The notes under the pieces were generated by a model. It was not told the origin of the DNA. It saw only the letters and a program-made list of their open reading frames with translations, and did not search any database. Source: a phage. From it: DNA of 64,000 nt. Position 1 is the stretch's first letter; each line of letters opens with the position of its first letter. Below, one piece after another: positions 5,106 through 31,616 of the stretch. The stretch lies in the sequence record NC_103192.1. One strand, 5' to 3'. The translations under genes were made by a program, and so were the position numbers.

Positions 5106-8100
5106 ATGAGCATGTATAGCTTCGATTTTGAGGCCTCCGGGCTTTTGGAAGATCCAGATCTTTATTATCACTGCGGCCTGTTTAAAGAGCTGAATAAGAA
5201 CCGTTTTATGCTGTTCCTCCCTCTAAATGACCGCACACACTACTCCGAGGAGGATATAGAGAAGGCTAAGAACTTTATTCTGGCAAAGAAAACTCTTTAT
5301 AAAGATTTTGAAGTTCGCATAGCAGATTTTTCAGAGTTGGAAGGTTGGCTTACAGGCAATTCTGACTGGTCACCAACAGCTTTGAACTGCCATAACTGCT
5401 ACAGTTATGACTTTATGCTGATGGAGAGATTATCCGGTATTCATTTTGATATGTTCCGTGATCCTAAATGCATGGGTACTATCAACGATCACCAGGTTAA
5501 CCTGTTTGATACGTTGGCGATGAGCCGAATCTTGTGGCCTGATCGCCCTTTACCAAAAGGTTGCCCGGACGCTGTATTCAACCCGGTTACTAAGAAAATG
5601 CAGCCTGTTGGTCCTCACGGCCTTATGGCATGGGGCTACGCTCTTGGTAACCAGAAAGTTCAAATTGATGACTGGCGCGATCTTCCGCTGTGGAAGTATG
5701 TGGATCGTGTATTTGAGGACGTTATCATCCAGGAGCTGCTCTGGAAAGAGCTAGTAGCGGAATCAAAAGGTGTATTCTACGGCAAATCTGACATGCAGAA
5801 CTTCATGTATGACCCTGCCAAAGAGAAGCCTAAAGGATTCAAGAAGATTACCTGGAAGAATGCATTACGCCGAGGCATGCTGCAGCACTTCCTGATGGAG
5901 CTGCAGGCCCGTCAGGGTGTGTATTTCGACATAGATGGGGCTATTGCTTTACGTGACCGTTGCGATGCGTGGATGAAAGAGATCGCTGATCGTGTTGAAC
6001 CTCAACTCCCTTTAAAAGAGTTGTCAATATCTCAGCGGCCCAAGTTCCCTGAAAAGCCGTTTAACCAAGATGGGACAATCTCCAATAATGGTTGGAAATG
6101 GTTAAAAGATAAGCTTGGCTACCCTGTGGACATGAGCGCTTTAGATTTCAAAGCCCCACCTAAGCGAGCATTTACCTCCACAGGAGATGTCAGTAAGATG
6201 GGGATAAAATGGTGTGAAGAGATGGGCTGCAAAGACCCCGATAAGATGGCTGCTTTCTTGAGAGGCTATATTAAGGGCACTTCCACACCACAACCTTTAC
6301 CTAAAGAGCTGATGGATCAGGCAATAAGTGATCTACAGCAGAAGCGAATGCCTGACTGCAAGATACCTATGAAAATCAGCAATCAGGACGACATTAAGCG
6401 ATACCTGATCAGTGCTGGTTGGCTTCCGACAATGTGGAGAACTAAGGATGTAACTAAAGACAGCAAGAAGAAAGCTCTACCTGATGCAGATGTTGATGCA
6501 CGAGTATATGCATATATGGACGAGCTTTTAGAGTCAGAGTATTGTGACCTAATTATCAACTTCTGGAACAAAACTGATGCTAAGTTTCAGACAACAGTGC
6601 ACAAGTTCCGAAGCTTTCCTAACTCCGAAAGGATTAAAAAGGAAGTATTCGGGAAAATACGCAGAAAAGCTAGGGCACTTATTACTTCCCCGCAACTGAA
6701 AGATACGTTTGGACACCTATGCCCGAATCTTGAAAGATTGAACGGAGAGATGGCTAAAGATATCGTCTTGTGGTTATCATTGCGAAACCGCAGATCGGTA
6801 CTTGATCCAATCAAGGAGGATAAGGTTGATACTGGTCTTCTTAATCACCCACGTTTGAAGATTGACCATAAGCTTCCTGCTAAAAGCTCTGGATTAACAA
6901 ACACTTCCCGACAGAAACACAGTATTTGTGCAAACATGCCTAAACCATCTCCTAAAGTGGTTATGGGTAAAGAGATGCGTAGTCTGTGGGGTGTTCCTCC
7001 AGGATACTTTGAGATCGGTATTGACGGGTCTAACTTGGAGCAGCTTATCGGGGCTTGGGGTGCCTTTGAGTTCGACAACGGCCTGTATTACGATGTTGTA
7101 AGTAACGGCGATGCACACTGTTATTCAGGAGATACACAAATTCTCACGGAGAAAGGGTGGGTGAGGTTTGAAGATCTTGATCCGGGAACACAAGTGTTCC
7201 AGTACGATCACAACACCTCGTCGATGAACCTTGTTACTCCATTAAATTACGTTAAGCGTAGTTATTGTGGGGATATGTATCATTTCCACAACAGCGGTGT
7301 GGATTTTATGGTTACAGATCAACACAGGATGCTGACCGTGGATCACAGAAGCAATAAATTGTTTGAAGATTTGGCAAAAGACCTGAAAGCAGGTAAAGGG
7401 TCTAATTCAGGAAGAAGGTTTATCCATGCGGCAGAGTTTTATGGGAATACAACCTTATCTCCTGCCCAGGTTAATTTGCTTATTGCTATTCACGATGATG
7501 GGCACTTGCATACAAATAAGGACGGCAGCATCGTGTGCAGGATTCAGGTCGGGAAGGGCAGAAAAGTTGCAACGCTTTTAGATACTTTTTCTGCTCTAAG
7601 CCTTAGTTATGTAGAGCAGAGCGGGAAAACCACAAAAGGGGGCTTACTGGCGAGAAGGTTCCAATTCCACGTTCCGTCCTGGGTATTTGAGTTTTTGGAC
7701 AGCAATAAGGATTTCACCTACAACCTGATGGACCTTGATAAAGAATCTAAAAACCTGTTTATAGCTTCTTTATCTAACTGGGACGGGTGGGTATCTTCCG
7801 AAGGTGGAAAAGTTGCCTACTACTCTCAGGCCGAGTGCAGGAAGAAATCTGTAGAGGTTGTGTCTGCGCTGGCTACTCAGTGTGGTTTACGGAATAATAC
7901 GGTAGCGATTCACAAAAAAGGTCGTTCCGTACAGCACAGAATCACGATTGGTAGCAAACAGAGAGCAGGGTTGCTGACACTATCTAAAGAGTCTGTCGAG
8001 GTGAGCGGTTCTTTGGTTTATTGCGTTACCGTCCCTTCTGGAGCAATCATTGTGAGAAGGAATGGTAAAGTGGCAGTGTGCGGTAACTGTAATAACGCCA

Positions 8101-8498
8101 AAGCTTACTCTTCTGTAGCAGGCAAGGAGATTTCCCGTAACGATGGTAAGCCTGTCACGTACGGTGTTATGTACGGGGCACAAAAAGATAAAGTTGCAGA
8201 TATGCTGGACATCTCTCCAGAGTTGGGACAAAGGGTAATCGATGCGCTTTGGGATGCCAACCCCGGTCTTAAGGGGCGTAAAGAGGATCTGGAGAAATTC
8301 TGGGAAGCAACTGGTAAGAAGTTTATCTACTCTTTTGATGGTCATGCCATCTGGACCCGATCTAAACACTCTTTACTTAATGCATACCAACAAAATGGTG
8401 GTGCATCGTTGTGTGACTTAGTTGGGATACTCATGCACCACCAAATGGTGAAGCGTGGGTGGTACGATGAAGGTGTTCGCCGTATTATCTATTACCAT
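5106..8498 (+). CDS. family A DNA polymerase, exon 1 (contains intein 7119..8087)
   Basis: 3'-5' exo motif FDFEASGL; Pol A motif A IGIDGSNLEQ and motif B RNDGKPVTYGVMYGAQ flanking intein; ORF stop 8502..8504 lies in intron. Confidence 0.85.
7119..8087 (+). mobile_element. intein (about 323 aa) with LAGLIDADG-type homing endonuclease-like insert, in DNA polymerase between motifs A and B
   Basis: N-terminal block CYSGDTQILTEKGW, C-terminal ...VYCVTVP...VCGN followed by +1 Cys; internal LLIAIHDDGH and LFIASLSNWDGW dodecapeptide-like motifs; exteins rejoin to ...SNGDAH|CNNAKAY... matching T7-like spacing. Confidence 0.75.
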
Positions 8499-8826
8499 AA
8501 ATAACATTGTGGCTTCGTGCAGTGATGCACGTCGAAAACCTCTTTAATTGACGGGAAGGCTAAGTTGACTTTTACACCTAAACATGGTAAAAGCTCGATA
8601 TGCTAATCCGCAGCGAAGCATCCGAGAGGATGAACGTTCAGAGACTATCGAAAGCATAGCTCCAGCATAGTTTGGTGTGAAGAAGCGAGTAGAGTAGGCC
8701 AGCAAGTGCGGTCGAAATGAGAGGTGCCTTGGTAACAAGGCAGTGAGATAGTCCGATCCATACGGGAAACTGTATGGCTATGCACGTAATGGTGCGGGGT
8801 AGCTTAACGACCTACCTGAACTATTG
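8499..8826 (+). ncRNA. group I self-splicing intron (no ORF) in DNA polymerase motif C
   Basis: Exon ends on U (..YYH, cat) with IGS-like GUGG at intron nt 10-13; core elements P-like ttgacgggaagg, Q-like aatccgcagcg, R gttcagagactatcgaaagc, S gagatagtcc; terminal G at 8826; splicing restores YYHDEYQLQV (Pol A motif C HDE). Confidence 0.75.
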
Positions 8827-9180
8827 GATGAGTACCAACTTCAAGTACCTGACACACCGAAGTATAAGACTGTGTACACCTTCGACACAATCGAAGAACT
8901 GGAAGCATTTAAGGCAGAGCAGGAGGCCAAACTTCATGTGTTCGACGGTCATAAGTACAAAAAGGCACGCAAGGATGAGGACGGAAACGAAGTGGTTGAC
9001 AGAGACGGAAACACGGTGTACGATCCTATCCTGAACGATGACGGAAAGCTTGAACTTATCTGGAGCCCTGTGGGTGAAATGGTGGTGCATTGCTTCTGGC
9101 AAGCTTCTAAAATGATGGGCGTCCCATTCCAGATCACAGGTGAATACTTGTGTGGGGCTAATTGGGGTAGTTGTCACTAA
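8827..9180 (+). CDS. family A DNA polymerase, exon 2 (C-terminal 117 aa)
   Basis: Begins DEYQLQV completing motif C; ends ...GANWGSCH, which I recall as resembling the T7 DNA polymerase C-terminus. Confidence 0.8.
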   Translation, partial: DEYQLQVPDTPKYKTVYTFDTIEELEAFKAEQEAKLHVFDGHKYKKARKDEDGNEVVDRDGNTVYDPILNDDGKLELIWSPVGEMVVHCFWQASKMMGVPFQITGEYLCGANWGSCH

Positions 9181-9229
9181 TGTAAACTATCAACACATGG
9201 AAGTGTTGTTGAGCAAAGAGGAGACTTTT

Positions 9230-9514
9230 ATGGTAGTAGAACCAACAAAAACATTTACATCCATGACTATCCCTGTTATTATGCAGGTGGAGTGTGTTCA
9301 GGTATCTCAAGTGTGGCCTGGCACTAAAATCCCAACAGGGCCTGATTTCTTTCAGGTTGGGAAAGTGTATAATGTCTGGAAGGCACCAGATTGTTACCCT
9401 TTCATTAAAGATGACCGTGGGATGCTGTGGTATCTTGGAAATGATTTGACACTGCACCTTGGGAATGCTATTATTGCAGTATTCAGACTTAACAAGAAGG
9501 AGACCGATCAATGA
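9230..9514 (+). CDS. hypothetical protein (paralog family KDdxGxxWfl)
   Basis: ATG after AAAGAGGAG RBS; shares IKDDRGMLWYLG motif with next two genes. Confidence 0.55.
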   Translation: MVVEPTKTFTSMTIPVIMQVECVQVSQVWPGTKIPTGPDFFQVGKVYNVWKAPDCYPFIKDDRGMLWYLGNDLTLHLGNAIIAVFRLNKKETDQ

Positions 9515-13639: not shown

Positions 13640-14234
13640 GAGGTGCATCAAGTGTGGAGAGGTGAAAAACCTCTCCGAGTTCTACAAACATCCAAAGATG
13701 TCTGACGGTCATCTTAATAAGTGCAAAGAGTGTTGCAAGAAGGCCAGCAGGGAGGCTGACCAATTTTCCCACGACTCTTCAGAAAAAGGTGTGATCCGCG
13801 TGTTGTACAAGACTCAAAAGTGCAACAGTAAGAAGAGAGGTCACCCACCTCCGACTTACACCAAAAAAGAGTTTAAGGAGTGGCTATACCTAAACGGTTA
13901 CAAAGAGTTGTATGACCAATGGGTAGCCAGCGGATACGACAAAAGGAAAAAGCCTTCTTGTGACAGGATAGATGATTTCAAAGGGTACTCTTTTGATAAT
14001 ATCCGTTTAACGACTTGGGGAGAAAATAAAGACAAGCAGACAGAGGATATTCTGTTACATAGAAGCACCAGCGGTAGACGGTGTAAAAATGTAAGGAGGC
14101 TGGACATGAATGGCAACGTTCTTAAAGAATGGGTATCCCACAATTCTTGTAGAAGAGAAACCGGAATATGTGTTGATTACTACATTCATGAAAAAATTCC
14201 AGCCCCAGATGGATACCTCTACGAATACTTTTAG
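13611..14234 (+). CDS. putative HNH homing endonuclease with N-terminal zinc finger
   Basis: [18 protein letters not shown]...CKECCK N-terminal Cys cluster; [25 protein letters not shown] resembles HNH IDRID..GY..N motif. Confidence 0.55.
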
Positions 14235-14250
14235 CACCTAACTAACATAG

Positions 14251-14278
14251 CCCTGCCCGAAAGGGTGGGGCATTTTTG
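14251..14278 (+). terminator. rho-independent terminator (identical hairpin to 2172)
   Basis: ccctgcccgaaagggtgggg + CATTTTTG. Confidence 0.6.
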
Positions 14279-14296
14279 TATAAGGAGATCTGAAAA

Positions 14297-14713
14297 ATGA
14301 CATTAGAAGATATCATTGTTAAACCTGAGAACTATGACCAATACAACCTGTCAACTCAATCTGTAGACCTCGGATGCGCCACAGTCAGTGCATGGCTGGT
14401 TAACGGAAAAGAGCTTGACGAGTGCCTGGAAGCTCACATGTCTATTAACAAGTTTCTGGATGAAAATACTCACTGGCTTGAGGGTGCAGGAGTATATGCT
14501 TCATGGTTGGAAAGTATGGGATTCGACTACCAATCTGAAGAAGGGTGGTGGAGCTATTTAGCTATCTGCCCAGAGACGCTGCAATGCTTCATGAAATATT
14601 CTGAAGATTTGGAGTACCGGGCGGTGGTTGATAGTGCTATTGCCCGTTATAGCCGTAAACCTTTTTCCCACGACATTAAAACTGTGGAAGAATTTGTTGA
14701 AGTTTTCTGTTGA
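14297..14713 (+). CDS. hypothetical protein
   Basis: RBS AAGGAGA. Confidence 0.6.
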   Translation: MTLEDIIVKPENYDQYNLSTQSVDLGCATVSAWLVNGKELDECLEAHMSINKFLDENTHWLEGAGVYASWLESMGFDYQSEEGWWSYLAICPETLQCFMKYSEDLEYRAVVDSAIARYSRKPFSHDIKTVEEFVEVFC

Positions 14714-14809
14714 CACAGGTTGGAAGGTGTGTAATTATAACCTTGTAGAGCTGGAGGACGTGATGAACGAAGAAAACTGGGATGTATAACTAACAGGAGG
14801 CCACTGCCC

Positions 14810-15007
14810 ATGATTTATCGAATCCGTGTAAGAGAAGATGCACCAGGCTGTTACTTTGACTGGCGTGGGTGGTGGTTTCTCCACCCAATGGATGGACTCA
14901 CAGATAGAATGCTAGATGCTGCCCTTTACACAGATACTGACATAGAGTATAATCTTTACTTGAAGGATGGTATCGATAACGGCCTGTTTGAAGCAATTCC
15001 TGCGTAA
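14810..15007 (+). CDS. hypothetical protein
   Basis: RBS CAGGAGG. Confidence 0.5.
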   Translation: MIYRIRVREDAPGCYFDWRGWWFLHPMDGLTDRMLDAALYTDTDIEYNLYLKDGIDNGLFEAIPA

Positions 15008-15075
15008 GAGAATGTGATCGCCATGTTTTATGATCTCCCTGTAGCACCACCACCTGTTGAACCTGGAGAACCAAG

Positions 15076-15501
15076 ATGATTTATGAAATGCCAAAACTGA
15101 TTCGTGACGATGCACGAAACGCCCACACCTTTATTATGGGCAAGCGCATGGATATTATTTGCCACAAAGATTTCTGGGAAGGGAGCTACTTCACAGAATA
15201 TTTTGGAAAAATGGATGATGGCCTACTGATCCAGTTCTACACCGATGCGGAAAACAACATTAATTGGGAGTTCGAGACCGAAGATATCCATAAACTTTTC
15301 ACCTTCCTCAATATTAAGGTTAAGGCCAAGTTTGAAGAGGGTGAGTGCGACGATTGTGGATTTTATGAGGTAACAGATTTCTATCTTCCTAGTGGTAAAA
15401 ACCTTTACTATGAAAGCCACTTCGGTAACTCCAATATGCCACAGTGCTGGACTGAGTTTTTTGAAGTTGTGGAAGAGGAGCTGGAATATCGTGATTATTG
15501 A
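15076..15501 (+). CDS. hypothetical protein
   Basis: 141-aa ORF. Confidence 0.55.
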   Translation: MIYEMPKLIRDDARNAHTFIMGKRMDIICHKDFWEGSYFTEYFGKMDDGLLIQFYTDAENNINWEFETEDIHKLFTFLNIKVKAKFEEGECDDCGFYEVTDFYLPSGKNLYYESHFGNSNMPQCWTEFFEVVEEELEYRDY

Positions 15502-15949
15502 TACTGTAGAGGGAGATTTAATCTCCCTTTTTAAGAGCGGTGCTGGTCACCTGATCCACGGTTGTAACTGCTTCCACACAATGGGTAAGGGGATAGCAAA
15601 ACAGATTGCCCGTGAGTTCCCTCAAGCATTGGCAGCTGACAAAGAGACCAGATATGGTTGCCTAAGTAAACTGGGTGCGTTCTCCCGCTGGGAGCACTTA
15701 TCTCCGAGAGGTATTGTCTACGGAATCAATCTGTATACTCAGTTCTACCCAGGACCTAATGCTGAATATTTCTCAATCCTGAAAGGCTTTGAGCTAGTCA
15801 ATAAGGTATTCAGTGGATCGACTTTACCATTCTACATCCCTAAGATCGGGTGCGGCATAGGCGGTTTGAAGTGGGAGCACGTAGAGGACGTTATTAACCT
15901 TGCCACTTTTGATATAGATATTATCGTGGTGGAGTACAAAGAGTGTTGA
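15491..15949 (+). CDS. macro-domain protein (ADP-ribose binding/processing-like)
   Basis: Pattern IIDTVEGDL...AGHLIHGCNCFHTMGKGIAKQIAREFP resembles the macro-domain N-terminal core (V.GDI...AIVNAAN...GGGV); GTG start overlapping upstream stop after GAGGAG. Confidence 0.6.
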   Translation: MIIDTVEGDLISLFKSGAGHLIHGCNCFHTMGKGIAKQIAREFPQALAADKETRYGCLSKLGAFSRWEHLSPRGIVYGINLYTQFYPGPNAEYFSILKGFELVNKVFSGSTLPFYIPKIGCGIGGLKWEHVEDVINLATFDIDIIVVEYKEC

Positions 15950-15974
15950 CAGATATATTTTAAGGTGGTATAGT
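15946..15974 (+). promoter_or_regulatory. sigma70-like promoter (TTGACA-17-TATAGT)
   Basis: Consensus -35, 17-bp spacer. Confidence 0.5.
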
Positions 15975-16003
15975 CACCACAACGATTAAGACAGAGGAGC
16001 ACT

Positions 16004-16198
16004 ATGGAGACTAAAATCTTAATTCTAGCTGTGATAGATACAACAGAAGGAGCCATGTTTGAATCTGCAGGAGGGTATTTCTACCTGCCCTACGGAAAAA
16101 GAACTTCCGAGCCGAGTAAAGATTCAATCCTCAAAGTGTTCCCGTGTGCTTTCTGGCTGGAGATTCTGGTAGAAGATTGCAGAGGACTAGGGAGATAA
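16004..16198 (+). CDS. hypothetical protein
   Basis: RBS AGAGGAG. Confidence 0.5.
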   Translation: METKILILAVIDTTEGAMFESAGGYFYLPYGKRTSEPSKDSILKVFPCAFWLEILVEDCRGLGR

Positions 16199-16200
16199 TT

Positions 16201-16395
16201 ATGAGAAACAAGAAAGAGCTTTACTCTGGTGAGTGGATAAACGATCAACAGGTAGGAGAGGTAACCTGCTTCCGGTGCTTTACTCGGTACAATCTTAAAA
16301 CTGCACCAAAAAGTGTTCCAAAGACTGATGGTTATTACATAAAAGAACCTCATTGCCCAAAATGTAAATGCCGATTGTACTGGAGCAATCTGTAA
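16201..16395 (+). CDS. hypothetical zinc-ribbon protein
   Basis: CFRC...CPKCKC Cys pairs; RBS GGGAGA. Confidence 0.5.
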   Translation: MRNKKELYSGEWINDQQVGEVTCFRCFTRYNLKTAPKSVPKTDGYYIKEPHCPKCKCRLYWSNL

Positions 16396-16399
16396 GAGG

Positions 16400-16427
16400 T
16401 TGACATCTGAAAACTGTAGTGTATAAT
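16400..16427 (+). promoter_or_regulatory. sigma70-like promoter (TTGACA-16-TATAAT)
   Basis: Perfect hexamers. Confidence 0.55.
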
Positions 16428-16458
16428 ATACGCATAAACTAACAGAGAGTGATGTATT

Positions 16459-16650
16459 ATGGTAATTTTTAACCGAGATGGTATCATAGTTAGACAGCAC
16501 CCGTTCCTTGAATACTATCAAATTGAGCAATGGTGTTATGGTGATTGCAGCCATTCTTATGGGCAAAGTTGGGGATATCGTACAGTTTTTGAATCAACAG
16601 ACATTGATAAGGTAAGACAGAAAGTTTTAGAACTTATTAACAACAAGTGA
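16459..16650 (+). CDS. hypothetical protein
   Basis: 63-aa ORF. Confidence 0.5.
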   Translation: MVIFNRDGIIVRQHPFLEYYQIEQWCYGDCSHSYGQSWGYRTVFESTDIDKVRQKVLELINNK

Positions 16651-16657
16651 GTATGAT

Positions 16658-16990
16658 ATGGTAACATTAGAAAGACGTAAAGCTATCGCCGCCACACTGG
16701 CAGACATCTTTTGGGATTGCAACTTAAAAGATACCCGAAATTGTGGCGCATCTGTAGATGTATTATTCCCACGGCCCACCATTGTTGCAATGGGAAACCT
16801 GTTAAACGTGGTGTACGGAGCATGGGACAAAGAAGGTGGATTCTATATCTGGCAACCTGACTACGGGGCCTGGAAAGAGGTAAGGGGTGCGGATGACTTT
16901 GGGCCTACAGTTGCTAAGATGGATGGCTGGGAAATTTATGTTGGAAATGACATGAAGCTGAAAGGCGAGATTGTTTACTGGCTACCTTAA
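16658..16990 (+). CDS. hypothetical protein
   Basis: 110-aa ORF. Confidence 0.55.
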   Translation: MVTLERRKAIAATLADIFWDCNLKDTRNCGASVDVLFPRPTIVAMGNLLNVVYGAWDKEGGFYIWQPDYGAWKEVRGADDFGPTVAKMDGWEIYVGNDMKLKGEIVYWLP

Positions 16991-16999
16991 GGGTAAAGT

Positions 17000-17245
17000 A
17001 TGAACACAGAGTGGACATTTGTAGACGGCGTTAAAAACATGCCTCTTGGAAAGTATATCGTAGCCATGGCTGATAAGGATGGCAATGTGGATTTCGGAGC
17101 TTGCGAGGTTGTTCTTGCAGGATCTGGTAACTATGTGGACAAAACCGGGATAATTAACGGTCAGTTCTACTTTGATCACAACCCTGTTGTAGCGTATATG
17201 GCTATGCCAGAGTTTAAGTTCCCAAAGGAGGGTGCTGATGTTTAA
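17000..17245 (+). CDS. hypothetical protein
   Basis: 81-aa ORF. Confidence 0.55.
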   Translation: MNTEWTFVDGVKNMPLGKYIVAMADKDGNVDFGACEVVLAGSGNYVDKTGIINGQFYFDHNPVVAYMAMPEFKFPKEGADV

Positions 17246-17435
17246 GCTTAAATCCGCATGGAACATTGCTGTGGGTGATGAGATCCGTATCCCAGGGGGA
17301 AAGACCATTATGAAGATATCTCGTATCGAGTACGAAGGTGATCGTGTATTTCATATCTTTGCAGAAGATGGTCGAGAAATTTATATACAGGCAGGCTCTC
17401 ACATCTATATTCGTAAGAAAGGGGACGACAAATGA
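17238..17435 (+). CDS. hypothetical protein
   Basis: ATG after AAGGAGG RBS. Confidence 0.5.
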   Translation: MFKLKSAWNIAVGDEIRIPGGKTIMKISRIEYEGDRVFHIFAEDGREIYIQAGSHIYIRKKGDDK

Positions 17436-17761
17436 CAGAGATCATCGTTTCAACTGCAGGGTATGTATTCCTGACAATCATTGCACTGACTATTTTGGTG
17501 ACAGTGTATGGGTTTGTTATCCTTCCTATCCTTGAGACATTTAGTTTGTGTCGGTGTTGGAGAAAAGCTTACGGTCCACAACCATGGAAGGACTGGCCCC
17601 ACCTGGTGCGCTTAGCGTTCTCTTATGCTTACGATCACTCCAGCAGTGCATGCATAACCGGATACCACGCCCACAACTGGAGCTGGGAAGGGTTGAGGAA
17701 ATGGAATGTTACAAAGACCATACCTCTGCGCATGTACAAACCTAAAAACAAAGACAGCTGA
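17432..17761 (+). CDS. hypothetical membrane protein
   Basis: Hydrophobic N-terminal segment VFLTIIALTILVTVYGFVILPIL. Confidence 0.55.
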   Translation: MTEIIVSTAGYVFLTIIALTILVTVYGFVILPILETFSLCRCWRKAYGPQPWKDWPHLVRLAFSYAYDHSSSACITGYHAHNWSWEGLRKWNVTKTIPLRMYKPKNKDS

Positions 17762-18061
17762 TACTTGAAAATTCCTGGCATATCAAGTATAAGGGGGATT
17801 TCTAAAATGGATTTCCTCCTTTTGATATTTCACCAGGCTGGATATTTTAAAATCCTTAGAAAATCAGAAAATGGATCGAAAACTAAAATGGATTTTTTCA
17901 AGACAGGCACGATAAGCTGCGCTGCTCATTCTATCATTCGCACCGTACTTCAAATCACAGTTCCAGATTTTCCACACACACTCTCGCCCATCTAACAGGA
18001 CTTTCCCAACTTACCTTCGACCTTTTATGACAATAAGTTAATTATTATCAGTAAGTTTTGA

Positions 18062-26041: not shown

Positions 26042-26066
26042 CAACGTTTTAAATTAGTTTAAGATG
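26039..26066 (+). promoter_or_regulatory. sigma70-like promoter (TTGACA-16-TAAGAT)
   Basis: Shares taagatgtatcacgtagggc downstream context with promoter at 27394. Confidence 0.5.
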
Positions 26067-26119
26067 TATCACGTAGGGGCAAGCGCCCTATTAAACGCAA
26101 CAAGAAGAGGATAAACACC

Positions 26120-26359
26120 ATGAAAAGCAGTAAAGGTTATAACGGTTGGAAAAACTTTAATCAGTGGAACGTTGTTCTGTGGATCAATAATGACGAAAGT
26201 ATGTACTTTTTCGCCCTGGGCCTGATTAATGAGTGTGGTAATAAAGGTGCGGCGGCTGATTTGATGTGCTACCGTTTGAAACAGGAAGGGATCACCCATA
26301 CCCCTGACGGTGTGCCTTATACTAAAACCAATATCCGCGCCGCTATGGTTGGAATGTGA
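26120..26359 (+). CDS. hypothetical protein
   Basis: RBS AAGAGGA. Confidence 0.6.
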   Translation: MKSSKGYNGWKNFNQWNVVLWINNDESMYFFALGLINECGNKGAAADLMCYRLKQEGITHTPDGVPYTKTNIRAAMVGM

Positions 26360-26368
26360 TAAAATAGC

Positions 26369-26396
26369 TTGACACTGTTTTTTATTCTGGTATAGT
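26369..26396 (+). promoter_or_regulatory. sigma70-like promoter (TTGACA-16-TATAGT)
   Basis: Consensus -35. Confidence 0.55.
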
Positions 26397-26448
26397 TTAT
26401 CACATAGGGCGGCAATAGTGCCGCTCACAACTAAAAAGGGAAATCATC

Positions 26449-26643
26449 ATGGCGCTTAAAAAACTAACAAGCAATACTCGTTGGGATGAAATCGACGGGG
26501 AAGTTTACATTTTTGCCCGTAAACCAGGGGATCAAAAATGGTCAAAGGCTTTTACTTGCCACCCTGCAACAATAGATCTAATAAAAAGTAAAGGTTTACG
26601 TGAAGCAGTAGCGAGAAGTTTACTGATCCCTTATAAAAAATAG
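26449..26643 (+). CDS. hypothetical protein
   Basis: RBS AAAAGGGAAA. Confidence 0.55.
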   Translation: MALKKLTSNTRWDEIDGEVYIFARKPGDQKWSKAFTCHPATIDLIKSKGLREAVARSLLIPYKK

Positions 26644-26644
26644 T

Positions 26645-26672
26645 TTGACAATATCGCACTAACCTTTAAAAT
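26645..26672 (+). promoter_or_regulatory. sigma70-like promoter (TTGACA-16-TAAAAT)
   Basis: Consensus -35. Confidence 0.45.
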
Positions 26673-26703
26673 GTTCTCTGTTACGTATCTTTAAAGGTGT
26701 AAC

Positions 26704-26883
26704 ATGTTCCAATCAATCATTGATGTTCTATCAGTCGCTAACAACGTGATGAACGTCATTACAATGATTAAACTTGTTGCGTGGTTTGTTTCTGGGGATT
26801 ATCGCTATACTAAGTGGCGCAAGCCAACCATAAAAGACGTAGCAAAGATCTTGTTTGAAGCAATGACAGAATATTATCTATAA
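26704..26883 (+). CDS. small hypothetical protein (59 aa), not in ORF track
   Basis: ATG after AAAGGTG; occupies otherwise empty gap between two promoters. Confidence 0.4.
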   Translation: MFQSIIDVLSVANNVMNVITMIKLVAWFVSGDYRYTKWRKPTIKDVAKILFEAMTEYYL

Positions 26884-26896
26884 CGATTATTTTTTG

Positions 26897-26925
26897 TTGA
26901 CATCTTGGGATTGCTCTTTTACTAT
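26897..26925 (+). promoter_or_regulatory. sigma70-like promoter (TTGACA-17-TACTAT)
   Basis: Consensus -35. Confidence 0.5.
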
Positions 26926-26979
26926 TAACGTGACTCGAAGGCCGTAACTGGTACGGCCTGATTCGAAAGGTGAATTAAT

Positions 26980-27180
26980 ATGAAACGTTTTACTTATGGC
27001 GTTGTTGGTGGGTATGTATCTAACCGTTTTTACAATACCGAGCGTGGTGCTAAAAATGCCGCTACCCGTGAACATGGCAATAGTGTGAATTTACAAATTG
27101 GTTATATTAGCAACATTAGTGGTATGTTTATTCCGGTTGCTCAACGCGGCATGTATTGCATAAACTGGATGCCAATGTAA
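26980..27180 (+). CDS. hypothetical protein
   Basis: RBS GAAAGGTG. Confidence 0.55.
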   Translation: MKRFTYGVVGGYVSNRFYNTERGAKNAATREHGNSVNLQIGYISNISGMFIPVAQRGMYCINWMPM

Positions 27181-27195
27181 AAAGGAGTAATAAAA

Positions 27196-27387
27196 ATGAA
27201 TGCCGAACAAGTTAGAAAGGTATTGGCGGTACTGCGTTATCATAATCATAGAAAGGTCATAGACGATCCTGATTATGTTGATTCAAGCCTGGAAGAAGGC
27301 ACATTGCAAGCTATAAGCCATATGCAAGAATTGCTTAAGCGTATGACAGAGAAAAACAGATCTGATTATATAGGTGACGAGATCTAA
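27196..27387 (+). CDS. hypothetical protein
   Basis: RBS AAAAGGAG. Confidence 0.55.
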   Translation: MNAEQVRKVLAVLRYHNHRKVIDDPDYVDSSLEEGTLQAISHMQELLKRMTEKNRSDYIGDEI

Positions 27388-27393
27388 AATAGC

Positions 27394-27421
27394 TTGCACA
27401 ATGTATCTGATAGTGTAAGAT
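27394..27421 (+). promoter_or_regulatory. sigma70-like promoter (TTGCAC-16-TAAGAT)
   Basis: Downstream context gtatcacgtagggcggcaatggtgccgctcacaact repeated at 26396. Confidence 0.45.
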
Positions 27422-27471
27422 GTATCACGTAGGGCGGCAATGGTGCCGCTCACAACTGGAAGGAAAACACC

Positions 27472-27675
27472 ATGACTACAGCTAACCGCCTGATCGCCGT
27501 CCTGAACAAAGCAAAGGCTAACCGCCTGGATGTTCAAATCAAAGATCAAGCAAATGGCGAGATCCTTGCTACGGTGTCCGATGGCGGTTATGTATCGGAA
27601 TCATTTTTATCAGGGAGCTTAGATCATCTTGTTTGGAAATTAGAAATTATCGTGGAGGATATGCAGATCATCTAA
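27472..27675 (+). CDS. hypothetical protein
   Basis: RBS GGAAGGAAA. Confidence 0.55.
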   Translation: MTTANRLIAVLNKAKANRLDVQIKDQANGEILATVSDGGYVSESFLSGSLDHLVWKLEIIVEDMQII

Positions 27676-27682
27676 TCTTTAC

Positions 27683-27713
27683 AAAACAGGGCTTGCAATG
27701 GTCCTGTTTTTTG
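27683..27713 (+). terminator. rho-independent terminator
   Basis: aaaacagg-gcttgcaatggt-cctgtttt + TTTG. Confidence 0.55.
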
Positions 27714-29086: not shown

Positions 29087-29639
29087 TGCTCTTCTCCTAC
29101 CATAAACGGCCCCACCCGGCAAGTGGAATAATTGACTAGCCAGCAATTGCCTGCACTGTACAAACATACAGGTAAAATAGTTATTGCATAACCTTTCATT
29201 GTGTGGTAGCAGTGCCATTTTTACACGTTTTTCCTTCCAAAATTGCACGTAATGCCGCTATTGCATAAATTTTAACCTGATGCATATCTTCAATATCTTG
29301 TCAACAACTAAAAATCTTTATAAGTCATACACTTACACCACCACAAAAGCGTGTTCTACGTGAAAAATCGGGTGTAACTATAGCCGCCAGATCTCAGAAT
29401 TTACGTACGCTCACCAGTCTATAGCCTGCTAAGTATTTATTCCAACCATAGAATAACGGAATAGTCAATACCTGCATAAAATAATTATTCGTGTAAACTG
29501 CATAACATAAATCAGCCAGGGTGTCAACATTTTTCGTAAACATCTCGAAATTATCACGATGAGTTATCATAAACAGAGAAATCTTTAGTCGTCTAATGTT
29601 TACTGTACATTACTATACTGGCTGGAATCATTAGATGAC

Positions 29640-30140
29640 TAAGAGAAAGATAAGAAATAGTTAACAATGTAATTGTTTTACCTGTAACAATAAGGCAACT
29701 ATGCAAACGAATGGCATGGCGCGACGGAGTCGCGACATAATATAAAAGCAGTAACCATCACCCCCGTGATAGTTTGTCTGCAAACTATTAATCAGATCAT
29801 AGTTGCCTTGTAGTTAGTTAATCATGACACAATAAGCAAGGCAACTATAGATCTGCTAATAGTTGCCCTGCTTTTATATTATGTCATAGAAACACCCGAA
29901 GGGGTGACCGAAGGTCACCTGGCCTAGCCAGTGAAAGATTATTAACTTGTTAATTGTTAACTTGCTAATTGTTTTCATGCAAACGAATGTCATGGCTTAT
30001 CATATCTGCGTGAACAGTGAAACATGGAAATGATAAATATGTGAACAGTTATCCATGTAAACTATTAGACATGCAAACAATCAGGTGTGCAAAAGTGACA
30101 TAGTATGTCACCAGTATGTCATAGTATGTCAGACAAGTTT
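29640..30140. repeat. repeat-dense non-coding region (alternating GGCAACTAT/ATAGTTGCC sites, palindromes, short direct repeats)
   Basis: GGCAACTAT at 29695 and 29840, inverted at 29792 and 29862; palindrome GGTGACCgaaGGTCACC about 29905; gcaaacgaatg(g/t)catggc x2; ttaacttg(t/c)taattgtt x2; agtatgtca x3. Confidence 0.5.
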
Positions 30141-31616
30141 TTCTCCTCTTTGTCAAGTGCTGCATGGAAAATTTACAAACTGGTATGGTAGCATTTTTGC
30201 GGCCCTGTTTACATTCAGGAGTGTATGTATAATCCTTGTTGTGTGGGCGTTTAGACGTCTGGACGGTCAGAAGTCCGCAGGTTAATATCTAATCTATTGG
30301 TTGCTAACTATATCCCACACAAATAGTAAGAAATATAATTGTTATATGCGTAAACAGTAACTCATGTTATCAATCCATGTATGGATCGCCAGTGGTGCGC
30401 ATAATGGGTATTATGTTAAATTGCCCGTAATGATAACCATTCCCACAATGATAGGTATTCTCATTCACCCCCACAAGATAGGTTGCAAATGTTGTGCCAC
30501 TGTGTGAACGGCCTCACCTATTAATTTGCCCCACTGCCTCGATATTTGAGAATTGTTATAAGAATGAGAAGTATTCCCATTCCGTCCGCCTGGCAGCACT
30601 CCAGTCGCTAACGCTCTCGGGCTGAGAGCTATGCTCGATGCTACCGGCTCCTGACAGGGAGGCACTCCTGTAGGACAGGTCAAAATCGGGGCATAACTGG
30701 ACCCCCCTTCAGATATTTCTGGCTGACTCTTCAGGTCTGTGTGGGAAAAGCCAACCTCTCCGGCAGAGGGGAGGGGGTCAATTAAAAAATTTACGTGGTG
30801 TATGAAGCGCTCTTCAGGCAAGGTGTGTATTATGGGAGGAATCACTCTTCAGGTGATGATATTTGTGGGTGTGATATTTGCTGGAAAGCCAGATATGACG
30901 GGACTCCCGGCGGGGCAGGGGTAGTACAGACAGGGAAAATGTGGAGAATGTGGTGGGTAAATTGATCAGGCAGGTAGAGTATGAAATATGTTACAGGTAT
31001 GTTAAATATGGAGGGTGAATATCTGTAAGATTTGTGTGTAAAATCAAAGACTTAAGTGGTGTTGTGGTATTTTCTATAAATAATTCAAGTTTAATAGGTA
31101 ATATTTGTCTCTATCCACTTTGTGTGGTAACCAGATTCAGATGAAATTGGTTTACAAGTGTATACATAATATACAAATTAAAGATACAAGAAACCCCCCT
31201 CCCCCTTCGGCTACCATTCACCTTTTCCTCTGACTGGTACTTAAACACTTATTCAGACTCTTCAGGTTATCACCCATATATCATATGGCAGTGACTGGTG
31301 TCCTCCGGCCCCTCTTTCGTCACCCGTCCGCTTCGCCATGCTAATGCCATAGCCAAAGGTTCGGTTGTTCACCCTGTTCACTCAGGTGTATCTCCATACC
31401 CCTTCAAACCGAAGAGAACAGAAAACCCGAATTACTCGGTAAAAGAAAAGAGAAGAACTTAATTTTATCAGGATAGGCAAGAATGTCAAGGCATGACTGC
31501 TCACTAAACAAGCAAACAGTCATGTGTGGGAGGTAAGTGATTGTGGTGGTAGGAAATTTAGTTGAAAGATGTGTTATAGGTGCTTCCAGCACTTTAGCCG
31601 GGCAGCTAATTGTGTG

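Follow-up and report, generated by a model that had tools for sequence, protein, structure and literature searches.

Phage macrodomain proteins that counteract the toxin-antitoxin defence DarTG2 have been described recently. When a T4 transposon library was screened on DarTG2 cells with HIDEN-SEQ, only tk.4 emerged as a significant hit, as described in a preprint of November 2025 (10.1101/2025.11.20.689424). A clean tk.4 knockout rendered T4 sensitive to DarTG2; the gene received the name adfM, for anti-DarT factor Macrodomain, and the evidence on T4 Tk.4 is genetic only (10.1101/2025.11.20.689424). The name AdfM was independently given to PhiKZ gp104, which strips the ADP-ribose attached by DarT2 off DNA (Cell Rep 2026, PMC13309987). 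Among cellular macrodomains, SCO6735 does not possess the Lys/Asp of TARG1 and DarG, but still cleaves off the ADP-ribose that DarT links to thymidine in DNA, and it confers protection against DarT (PMC9411070). Its Gln85Ala variant is dead and a water-mediated mechanism has been proposed, with the Gln positioning the distal ribose (PMC9411070). In NARP1-AP, the phage macrodomain protein Adpp removes the phosphate from aRES-made ADPR-1''-phosphate so that NARP1 rebuilds NAD+ (Osterman et al., 10.64898/2026.01.28.702374). Thus, the broad family to which Tk.4 and Adpp belong has two experimentally supported roles, namely, DarTG2 escape and the Adpp reaction. ICP1 AdfB is a DarT-binding antitoxin mimic, and its paper draws no link to macrodomains. 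Within the Vequintavirinae, Bas60-62 carry a NADAR anti-DarT1 factor (PMC11825919).

The gene studied here lies in a stretch of phage DNA of 64,000 nucleotides (NC_103192.1), the whole of which is referred to as the window. The source is an rV5-like Vequintavirus, a phage of E. coli. The 4 kb around the gene share 92-95% identity with about 115 rV5-like Escherichia phages (Vequintavirus), including ECML-10, JES2013, rV5_ev168 and BASEL phages. The gene product is referred to as the window protein.

Gene structure, selection and expression

Helicase/primase and DNA polymerase genes lie upstream of the macrodomain gene, which is part of a long series of small function-unknown genes, all on the same strand. 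The gene and its upstream elements are as follows.

14925-14953, + strand: candidate sigma-70-like promoter, TTTACA-17-TATAAT, 11/12 consensus match, just upstream of the two-gene unit
15076-15501, + strand: upstream ORF of 141 amino acids from the ORF list, phrog_8157 (PHROG E 2.9e-79), function unknown
15475-15480, + strand: Shine-Dalgarno-like GAGGAG, 10 nt 5' of the GTG, read directly from the sequence
15491-15949, + strand: macrodomain CDS of the Tk.4/AdfM family, 152 codons plus stop, GTG start and TGA stop

The peptide …DTVEGDL…AGHLIHGCNCFHTMGKGIAKQIA… is an exact match to the translation of 15491-15949 on the + strand. Translation starts at the GTG at 15491 and not at position 15392, where the mechanically longest ORF over the gene begins: the upstream ORF ends in a stop codon that overlaps this GTG (GTGATTATTGA), GAGGAG is found 10 nt upstream of the GTG and the starts and alignments of homologues agree. 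Vequintavirus orthologues have the same GTGATTATTGAT start, and RB49 Tk.4 begins at the same residues as the window protein (ATGATTATTGAT, MIIDTV). For T4 Tk.4 (MIVKYI) and other homologues, the alignment begins at residue 1 of the window protein.

This is a genuine, conserved gene: about 116 Vequintavirus records keep it with at least 80% amino-acid identity. Compared with diverged orthologues, synonymous changes far outnumber non-synonymous ones, and dN/dS was 0.09 against the orthologue of rV5_ev168 and 0.115 against that of bov10K2. The gene is under purifying selection, and given a dN/dS of approx. 0.1 it can be considered as expressed and selected.

The phrog_8157 ORF and the macrodomain gene recur as a pair in Vequintavirus relatives and are probably co-transcribed and translationally coupled, since the stop of the former overlaps the start of the latter. 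The upstream ORF gave zero matches to Pfam or PADLOC. Outside Vequintavirus, phrog_8157 homologues occur in RB49-like phages. The 2.5 kb around RB49 tk.4 have no such homologue annotated, so that RB49 gives no independent co-occurrence in favour of a functional link between the two genes, and this line of argument was dropped.

The candidate promoter could drive the two-gene unit via the host RNA polymerase, which would mean early expression. A second 11/12 sigma-70-like match, which shares positions with the stop of the macrodomain gene, lies at 15946-15974 and would serve the next gene. Between 13.5 and 17.5 kb, the consensus scan gave 17 sigma-70-like matches compared to 8.8 ± 2.8 expected. 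These are consensus matches only and fit early transcription by the host RNA polymerase; a host-promoter-rich early region is consistent with an anti-defence role. The ten ORFs flanking the gene carry no ART, DarT or NAD-salvage signature in Pfam and PHROGs and match only function-unknown PHROGs, endonuclease VII and a small zinc-binding protein. This left no toxin or ART partner among the flanking ORFs, and the idea of one was rejected.

Fold and family

The window protein is a stand-alone macrodomain of the ALC1/TARG1-like class rather than a MacroD, PARG or macroH2A protein, as the results from Pfam, PHROG 335, AlphaFold2 and the PDB converge. The Pfam Macro profile (PF01661) was matched with 28 bits (E 2.3e-6), above its gathering cut-off of 22. 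PHROG 335, which is labelled 'phosphatase' of the A1pp/Poa1p type, was matched over the full length (E 2.5e-59). The AlphaFold2 model, computed from a 55-sequence alignment, reached a pLDDT of 96.7 and a pTM of 0.91, and the model and its PDB matches display the three-layer alpha/beta/alpha macro fold. In the Foldseek search against the PDB, 166 matches were obtained at E ≤ 0.001. The best 50 of these 166 were mostly macrodomains, plus designed hydrolases on such a scaffold. TARG1 was the best match (E 4e-10, TM 0.78-0.85), followed by Poa1p, DarG (Taq, Mtb), BT1257 and SCO6735. The PDB sequence profile search gave Mtb DarG as the nearest entry (7.9e-18) and also found BT1257, SCO6735, TARG1, Taq DarG and Poa1p. 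The top 25 Foldseek matches and all 16 profile matches belong to the ALC1/TARG1-like class, plus designed proteins on that scaffold. The macro-domain protein originally predicted at 15491-15949 is hence borne out by Pfam Macro, PHROG 335, AlphaFold2 and Foldseek: the profile search returned a match above its cut-off and the predicted structure has the macro fold.

The protein is not a DarG. It resembles the DarG2 macrodomain (Taq 5m31/5m3e, Mtb 5m3i) in its fold and presumably shares the substrate dT-ADP-ribose with it, but it has none of Lys80, the C-terminal DarT-binding domain and an adjoining darT. On the NCBIfam DarG model NF048014 it scored 45.8 bits against an equivalog cut-off of 250, covering only profile positions 3-143 of 338, and on the PADLOC DarG model it matched positions 4-141 of 329. 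With 48.5 bits for the window protein, 36 for T4 Tk.4 and 46 for the NARP1-linked protein of Bennett on the PADLOC model, the DarG HMM scores (NCBIfam, PADLOC) do not separate Tk.4-type from Adpp-type proteins and were rejected as a discriminator.

Active site

Three elements of the active site were located by conservation and alignment.

15557-15598, + strand: residues 23-36, HGCNCFHTMGKGIA, first ADP-ribose-binding loop (conservation and structure alignments)
15728-15742, + strand: residues 80-84, NLYTQ, catalytic-position motif (conservation and profile alignment with 5m3i, 5e3b, 2fg1 and 4j5r)
15839-15865, + strand: residues 117-125, PKIGCGIGG, second (diphosphate-binding) glycine-rich loop (conservation and alignments)

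In the conservation alignment of 55 homologues with 32-95% identity, G24, N26, G34, A36, N80, Q84, P117 and G120 were invariant, and H23, C27, M31, G32, Y82, T83, I119, G122 and G125 were conserved to at least 90%. The ADP-ribose-binding loops are intact: the patterns N-x(5)-G-x-G-[IV]-A and G-x-G-x-G-G are present and align with the loops of ADP-ribose-bound structures. PKIGCGIGG aligns with PRIGCGLAGG (SCO6735, BT1257) and PPLGVGNGG (DarG).

In the profile alignment, Q84 is placed on Lys80 of DarG (FPTK), Lys84 of TARG1 (ITK) and Gln85 of SCO6735 (NMIGQ; chain index 105 of 5e3b equals native residue 85). Because Q84 sits at the Lys position of DarG and TARG1, the family of the window protein is, judged by this alignment, 'glutamine-type'. 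H23 and T30 align with H23 and S30 of Poa1p, which would leave room for phosphatase chemistry, and G24 aligns with Val25 of SCO6735.

Comparison with related macrodomains

T4 Tk.4 aligned with the window protein over the full length with 38% identity in 153 aligned columns (E 3e-40, 120 bits). Both are stand-alone macrodomains of about 150 amino acids with Gln at the catalytic position, belong to the same PHROG and are encoded in an early or non-essential gene region. T4 belongs to the Straboviridae, whereas the window phage belongs to the Vequintavirinae, and the gene order vs-tk.4-tk.3 in T4 differs from that in the window, where phrog_8157 precedes the macrodomain gene. Identity was much higher to RB49 Tk.4 (68%), whose gene is arranged as vs-tk.4-tk, syntenic with T4; this value suggests an exchange between rV5-like and RB49-like phages. 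The motifs HGCNCFHTMG, NLYTQF, PGPN and IGxGIG are common to the window protein, RB49 Tk.4 and T4 Tk.4.

The family is widespread. It was found by tblastn in 2,793 of 50,697 phage records, i.e. about 5% of sequenced phage genomes, in T-even and other Straboviridae, Ackermannviridae, Felix O1-like, Pseudomonas and Vibrio phages. A metagenomic homologue with 45% identity overlaps a Thg1-like gene and adjoins Rnl2 and NADAR genes; other distant metagenomic homologues adjoin NUDIX, NAMPT and RtcB genes. Given these neighbours, the family as a whole sits in an NAD/ADP-ribose and RNA-repair neighbourhood.

In a neighbour-joining tree with 100 bootstraps, the window protein was placed beside RB49 and T4 Tk.4 and the NARP1-linked proteins stood apart, with bootstrap values of 56 or less. 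The sole solid grouping was the pair of DarG and the PhiKZ protein (bootstrap 95). PhiKZ gp104 resembles the window protein as an orphan phage macrodomain of the same fold class, and it counters DarTG2 in PhiKZ (PMC13309987). It differs in being Lys-type (FPTK) instead of Gln-type, with 24% identity to the window protein and 132.9 instead of 48.5 bits on the PADLOC DarG model, and it is imported into the phage nucleus, which rV5-like phages do not have. Given the Lys motif of the PhiKZ protein and its grouping with Mtb DarG, the two proteins named AdfM represent different branches, the Gln-type Tk.4 and the Lys-type PhiKZ gp104, with the window protein on the former.

SCO6735 (5e3b) and BT1257 (2fg1) share with the window protein the Gln in place of the catalytic Lys within an N-x-x-x-Q motif as well as the H-x-C-N and RIGCGLAGG-type loops. 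They differ in being cellular and basic (pI 8.9-9.7), with an identity of only about 22-23%. The mobile loop after the Gln is longer in these proteins, QHGMKTGSKGAP compared to QFYPGPN; the window loop is 5 residues shorter in the alignment, and the extended basic mobile loop is absent. The window protein is mildly acidic (pI 6.2, net charge -2) and does not have the electropositive surface of SCO6735 (pI 9.7, charge +6). DNA-acting SCO6735, DarG and TARG1 are basic, while T4 Tk.4 (pI 5.9) and PhiKZ AdfM (pI 5.05) are acidic. Charge was dropped as a proxy for DNA binding, as PhiKZ AdfM, for which action on DNA has been shown by experiment, is acidic, and so is T4 Tk.4. Human TARG1/OARD1 (4j5r), the best structural match and of the ALC1-like class, has a Lys84/Asp125 dyad (PMC9411070) in contrast to Gln84 and is 23-24% identical. 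Adpp from the NARP1-AP of Gary is a Gln-motif member of the phage macro family to which the window protein belongs, and the window protein keeps the His and Ser/Thr of Poa1p at the respective positions. The adpp gene is located between Adps and Namat, neither of which was found in the window or in rV5_ev168.

Proposed function and alternatives

The window protein is best explained as an orphan Tk.4/AdfM-type DNA ADP-ribosylglycohydrolase countering DarT2, to which we assign a probability of approx. 60%. This assignment is based on the homology to Tk.4 with its DarTG2 phenotype in T4 and on the invariant Gln, as in SCO6735, which cleaves dT-ADP-ribose. The protein would probably be made early from a host-type promoter. 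DarT2, the toxin of a DarTG2 host, would put ADP-ribose on thymidines in single-stranded phage DNA and the window protein would strip it off again, provided that it acts on the same substrate as its relatives. Gln84 may play the part proposed for Gln85 of SCO6735, holding the distal ribose in place for a water-mediated hydrolysis. Replication and packaging of the phage DNA could then proceed, and the protein would serve as a phage-borne stand-in for the DarG2 antitoxin. The analogy to DarG and DarT drawn in the original prediction gains support from the full-length homology to T4 Tk.4, which is required on DarTG2 hosts.

Against this assignment stand the identity to T4 Tk.4 of only 38%, the weak bootstrap values of the tree, the acidic pI and the RNA-repair or NAD-salvage surroundings of distant homologues, and PHROG 335 also holds Adpp-type ADPR-1''-phosphate phosphatases. 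A Poa1p-like enzyme of this type, the main rival reading, would convert ADPR-1''-phosphate to ADP-ribose, with the substrate coming from aRES (RES-domain NAD+ phosphorylase defence) or from pathways in which it is a by-product of RNA repair. Besides the 'phosphatase' label of PHROG 335, Poa1p is among the top structural matches, and H23 and T30 correspond to the Poa1p residues H23 and S30 that are mutated in PDB 6lfs and 6lft. Homologues with 34-36% identity are found within Prs-like/Nampt-like (NARP1) operons of Vibrio phage Bennett and Pseudomonas phage REC; in Bennett, the gene sits between the Prs-like and Nampt-like genes and the arrangement in REC is similar. The macro protein of Vibrio phage Gary dephosphorylates ADPR-1P and is needed to beat aRES (10.64898/2026.01.28.702374). 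However, this dephosphorylation is useful only if NARP1 (Adps plus Namat) then remakes NAD+. A tblastn search (E ≤ 1) with the Adps and Namat proteins of Bennett gave no match in the window, nor in the complete genome of the 92%-identical relative rV5_ev168, whose annotation lists neither. Without them, the phosphatase step cannot restore NAD+, and an Adpp/NARP1-AP setting was rejected for the phage studied here. The two NARP1-linked proteins (n=2) also have HQxNCFC and NxYGQY where those of the window, T4 and RB49 have HGCNCFH and NLYTQF, and the window protein scored 120 bits with T4 Tk.4 compared to 68 bits with the Bennett protein, which places it closer to the former. Taken as the function of the window protein, ADPR-1''-phosphate dephosphorylation is unlikely. 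For the same reason, the erasure of NAD-derived signals that had originally been suggested is unsupported: the documented small-molecule activity is that of Adpp in NARP1-carrying phages, and NARP1 was not found here.

It is quite improbable that the protein is a general regulator or eraser acting on another substrate instead of a DarT2-specific counter-defence, be it Glu/Asp-linked protein ADP-ribosylation, ADP-ribosylated RNA or O-acetyl-ADP-ribose from a phage SIR2-family enzyme. TARG1 is the best structural match, and TARG1 and SCO6735 work on protein as well as on DNA (PMC9411070). Genes for a SIR2-family protein and a polynucleotide kinase/phosphatase are present in rV5-like genomes, and the Thg1-like, Rnl2 and NADAR genes around the 45%-identical metagenomic homologue point in the same direction. 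The SIR2 gene, however, is about 50 kb away from the macrodomain gene and is absent in T4, no ADP-ribosyltransferase gene adjoins the macrodomain gene, and the sole known phenotype of a Tk.4-type protein is DarTG2-specific. The chances are very small for a non-catalytic protein that would bind and block DarT2 directly or would act as a sponge for ADP-ribose-derived immune signals (gcADPR, His-ADPR). Dead variants of SCO6735 (Q85A), DarG (K80A) and TARG1 (K84A) do inhibit DarT via interaction (PMC9411070), and the macrodomains of Thoeris ThsA bind His-ADPR. On the other hand, the invariance of the ligand-binding and catalytic-position residues in 55 divergent homologues is the pattern of an enzyme, the C-terminal DarT-binding domain of DarG is missing, and the literature searched contained no phage macrodomain that acts as a sponge. 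The anti-Thoeris genes of Migulavirinae proved irrelevant as a parallel, as the macrodomain there is that of the host ThsA.

The glutamine-type phage macro family (PHROG 335) might also be a single versatile eraser that acts both on dT-ADP-ribose on DNA and on ADPR-1''-phosphate, in rV5-like phages possibly aided by the coupled phrog_8157 protein. We regard this dual specificity as doubtful. If true, the phage would weaken two NAD+-based defences of unrelated mechanism with a single small early protein.

Significance

As a probable eraser of DarT2 modifications, the window protein adds to a recently described kind of enzyme; the kind itself is not new. Pathogenic E. coli and other pathogens carry DarTG systems, and rV5-like (Vequintavirinae) phages, with their broad host range, are candidates for use in phage therapy and biocontrol. 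A probable DarT2 eraser in these phages would aid the prediction of their host range, and it would account for one of the many unannotated early genes of rV5-like phages. With the Tk.4 branch and the Adpp phosphatases in one family, substrate specificity becomes a directly testable question.

Gene neighbourhood and possible exchange with RB49-like phages

The macro gene lies between two small genes, the second of which is followed by a predicted promoter.

Features adjoining the macro gene (window coordinates)
15076-15501, phrog_8157 protein, 141 aa, function unassigned, translationally coupled to the macro gene
16201-16395, small Phage_zn_bind_2 protein (PF23903, E 1.5e-22), directly downstream of the macro gene
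16400-16427, predicted sigma-70 promoter, TTGACA-16-TATAAT, 12/12 consensus match, after the Phage_zn_bind_2 gene

Outside Vequintavirus, homologues of the phrog_8157 protein were found only in RB49-like Krischvirus phages, with 36-38% identity. The same group has a Tk.4 protein that shares 68% identity with the macro protein of rV5-like phages. Since both the phrog_8157 homologues and this similar Tk.4 occur in Krischvirus, sequence comparison suggests that genes have been exchanged between rV5-like and RB49-like Krischvirus phages.

Window 14000-18000, an E. coli rV5-like region, shares about 94% identity with sixteen GenBank records titled ‘Campylobacter phage’ (MG0656xx, host C. jejuni). 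These records are unannotated, and their genomes are probably wrongly labelled or contaminants.

Macro homologues in other genomes

In Vibrio phage Bennett (L004 4132-7138) and Pseudomonas phage REC (L013 1-3971), macro homologues are enclosed by Prs-like/Nampt-like (NARP1) operons. This setting agrees with that of Adpp, the ADPR-1''-phosphate phosphatase of the recently described NARP1-AP (10.64898/2026.01.28.702374). The Bennett and REC proteins carry HQxNCFC and NxYGQY at positions where Tk.4-type proteins differ. A metagenomic contig (L014 3274-5737, homologue P0018) contains a macro gene with 45% identity that overlaps a Thg1-like gene upstream and is flanked by Rnl2 and NADAR genes, a neighbourhood resembling RNA repair. 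Macrodomain and NADAR, which are the two known anti-DarT eraser folds, are found within 1 kb there.

The top viral structure match of the macro-protein model in BFVD was A0A481YV05 from Marseillevirus, with 39% identity and a TM of 0.93. This 302-aa protein is annotated as ‘SNF2 subfamily protein’ and was matched in its macro part. For a giant eukaryotic virus, this is a surprisingly close match.

Further features of the window

The DNA polymerase gene (5106-9411) contains two inserts, neither of which is present in the relative rV5_ev168.

Inserts in the DNA polymerase gene (window coordinates)
about 7118-8115, insert 1, about 1 kb, in frame with the polymerase gene
8489-8776, insert 2, group I intron (Rfam RF00028, 73.7 bits)

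Insert 1 starts with a weak Hint_2 (intein splicing) match under the cut-off (E 8e-5). With these two inserts, the polymerase in the window appears to require protein splicing as well as RNA splicing.

Window 26043-27709, a variable cassette inside the early region, has no nucleotide match in rV5_ev168, which carries another segment of about 2 kb at that position. ORFs are sparse over about 2 kb at the switch in transcription direction (about 29600-31400), and this stretch matched no Rfam family. According to the HIDEN-SEQ preprint (10.1101/2025.11.20.689424), its intergenic counterpart in Bas54 does not tolerate transposon insertions.

NAD-related genes

In rV5-like genomes, a region beyond the window codes for a SIR2-family NAD-dependent enzyme (rV5_ev168 record 67742-68503; 17742-18503 in L010, a part of that record); these genomes also have polynucleotide kinase/phosphatase and phosphoesterase genes. 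The SIR2-family enzyme is a possible internal supplier of ADP-ribose derivatives to the macrodomain.
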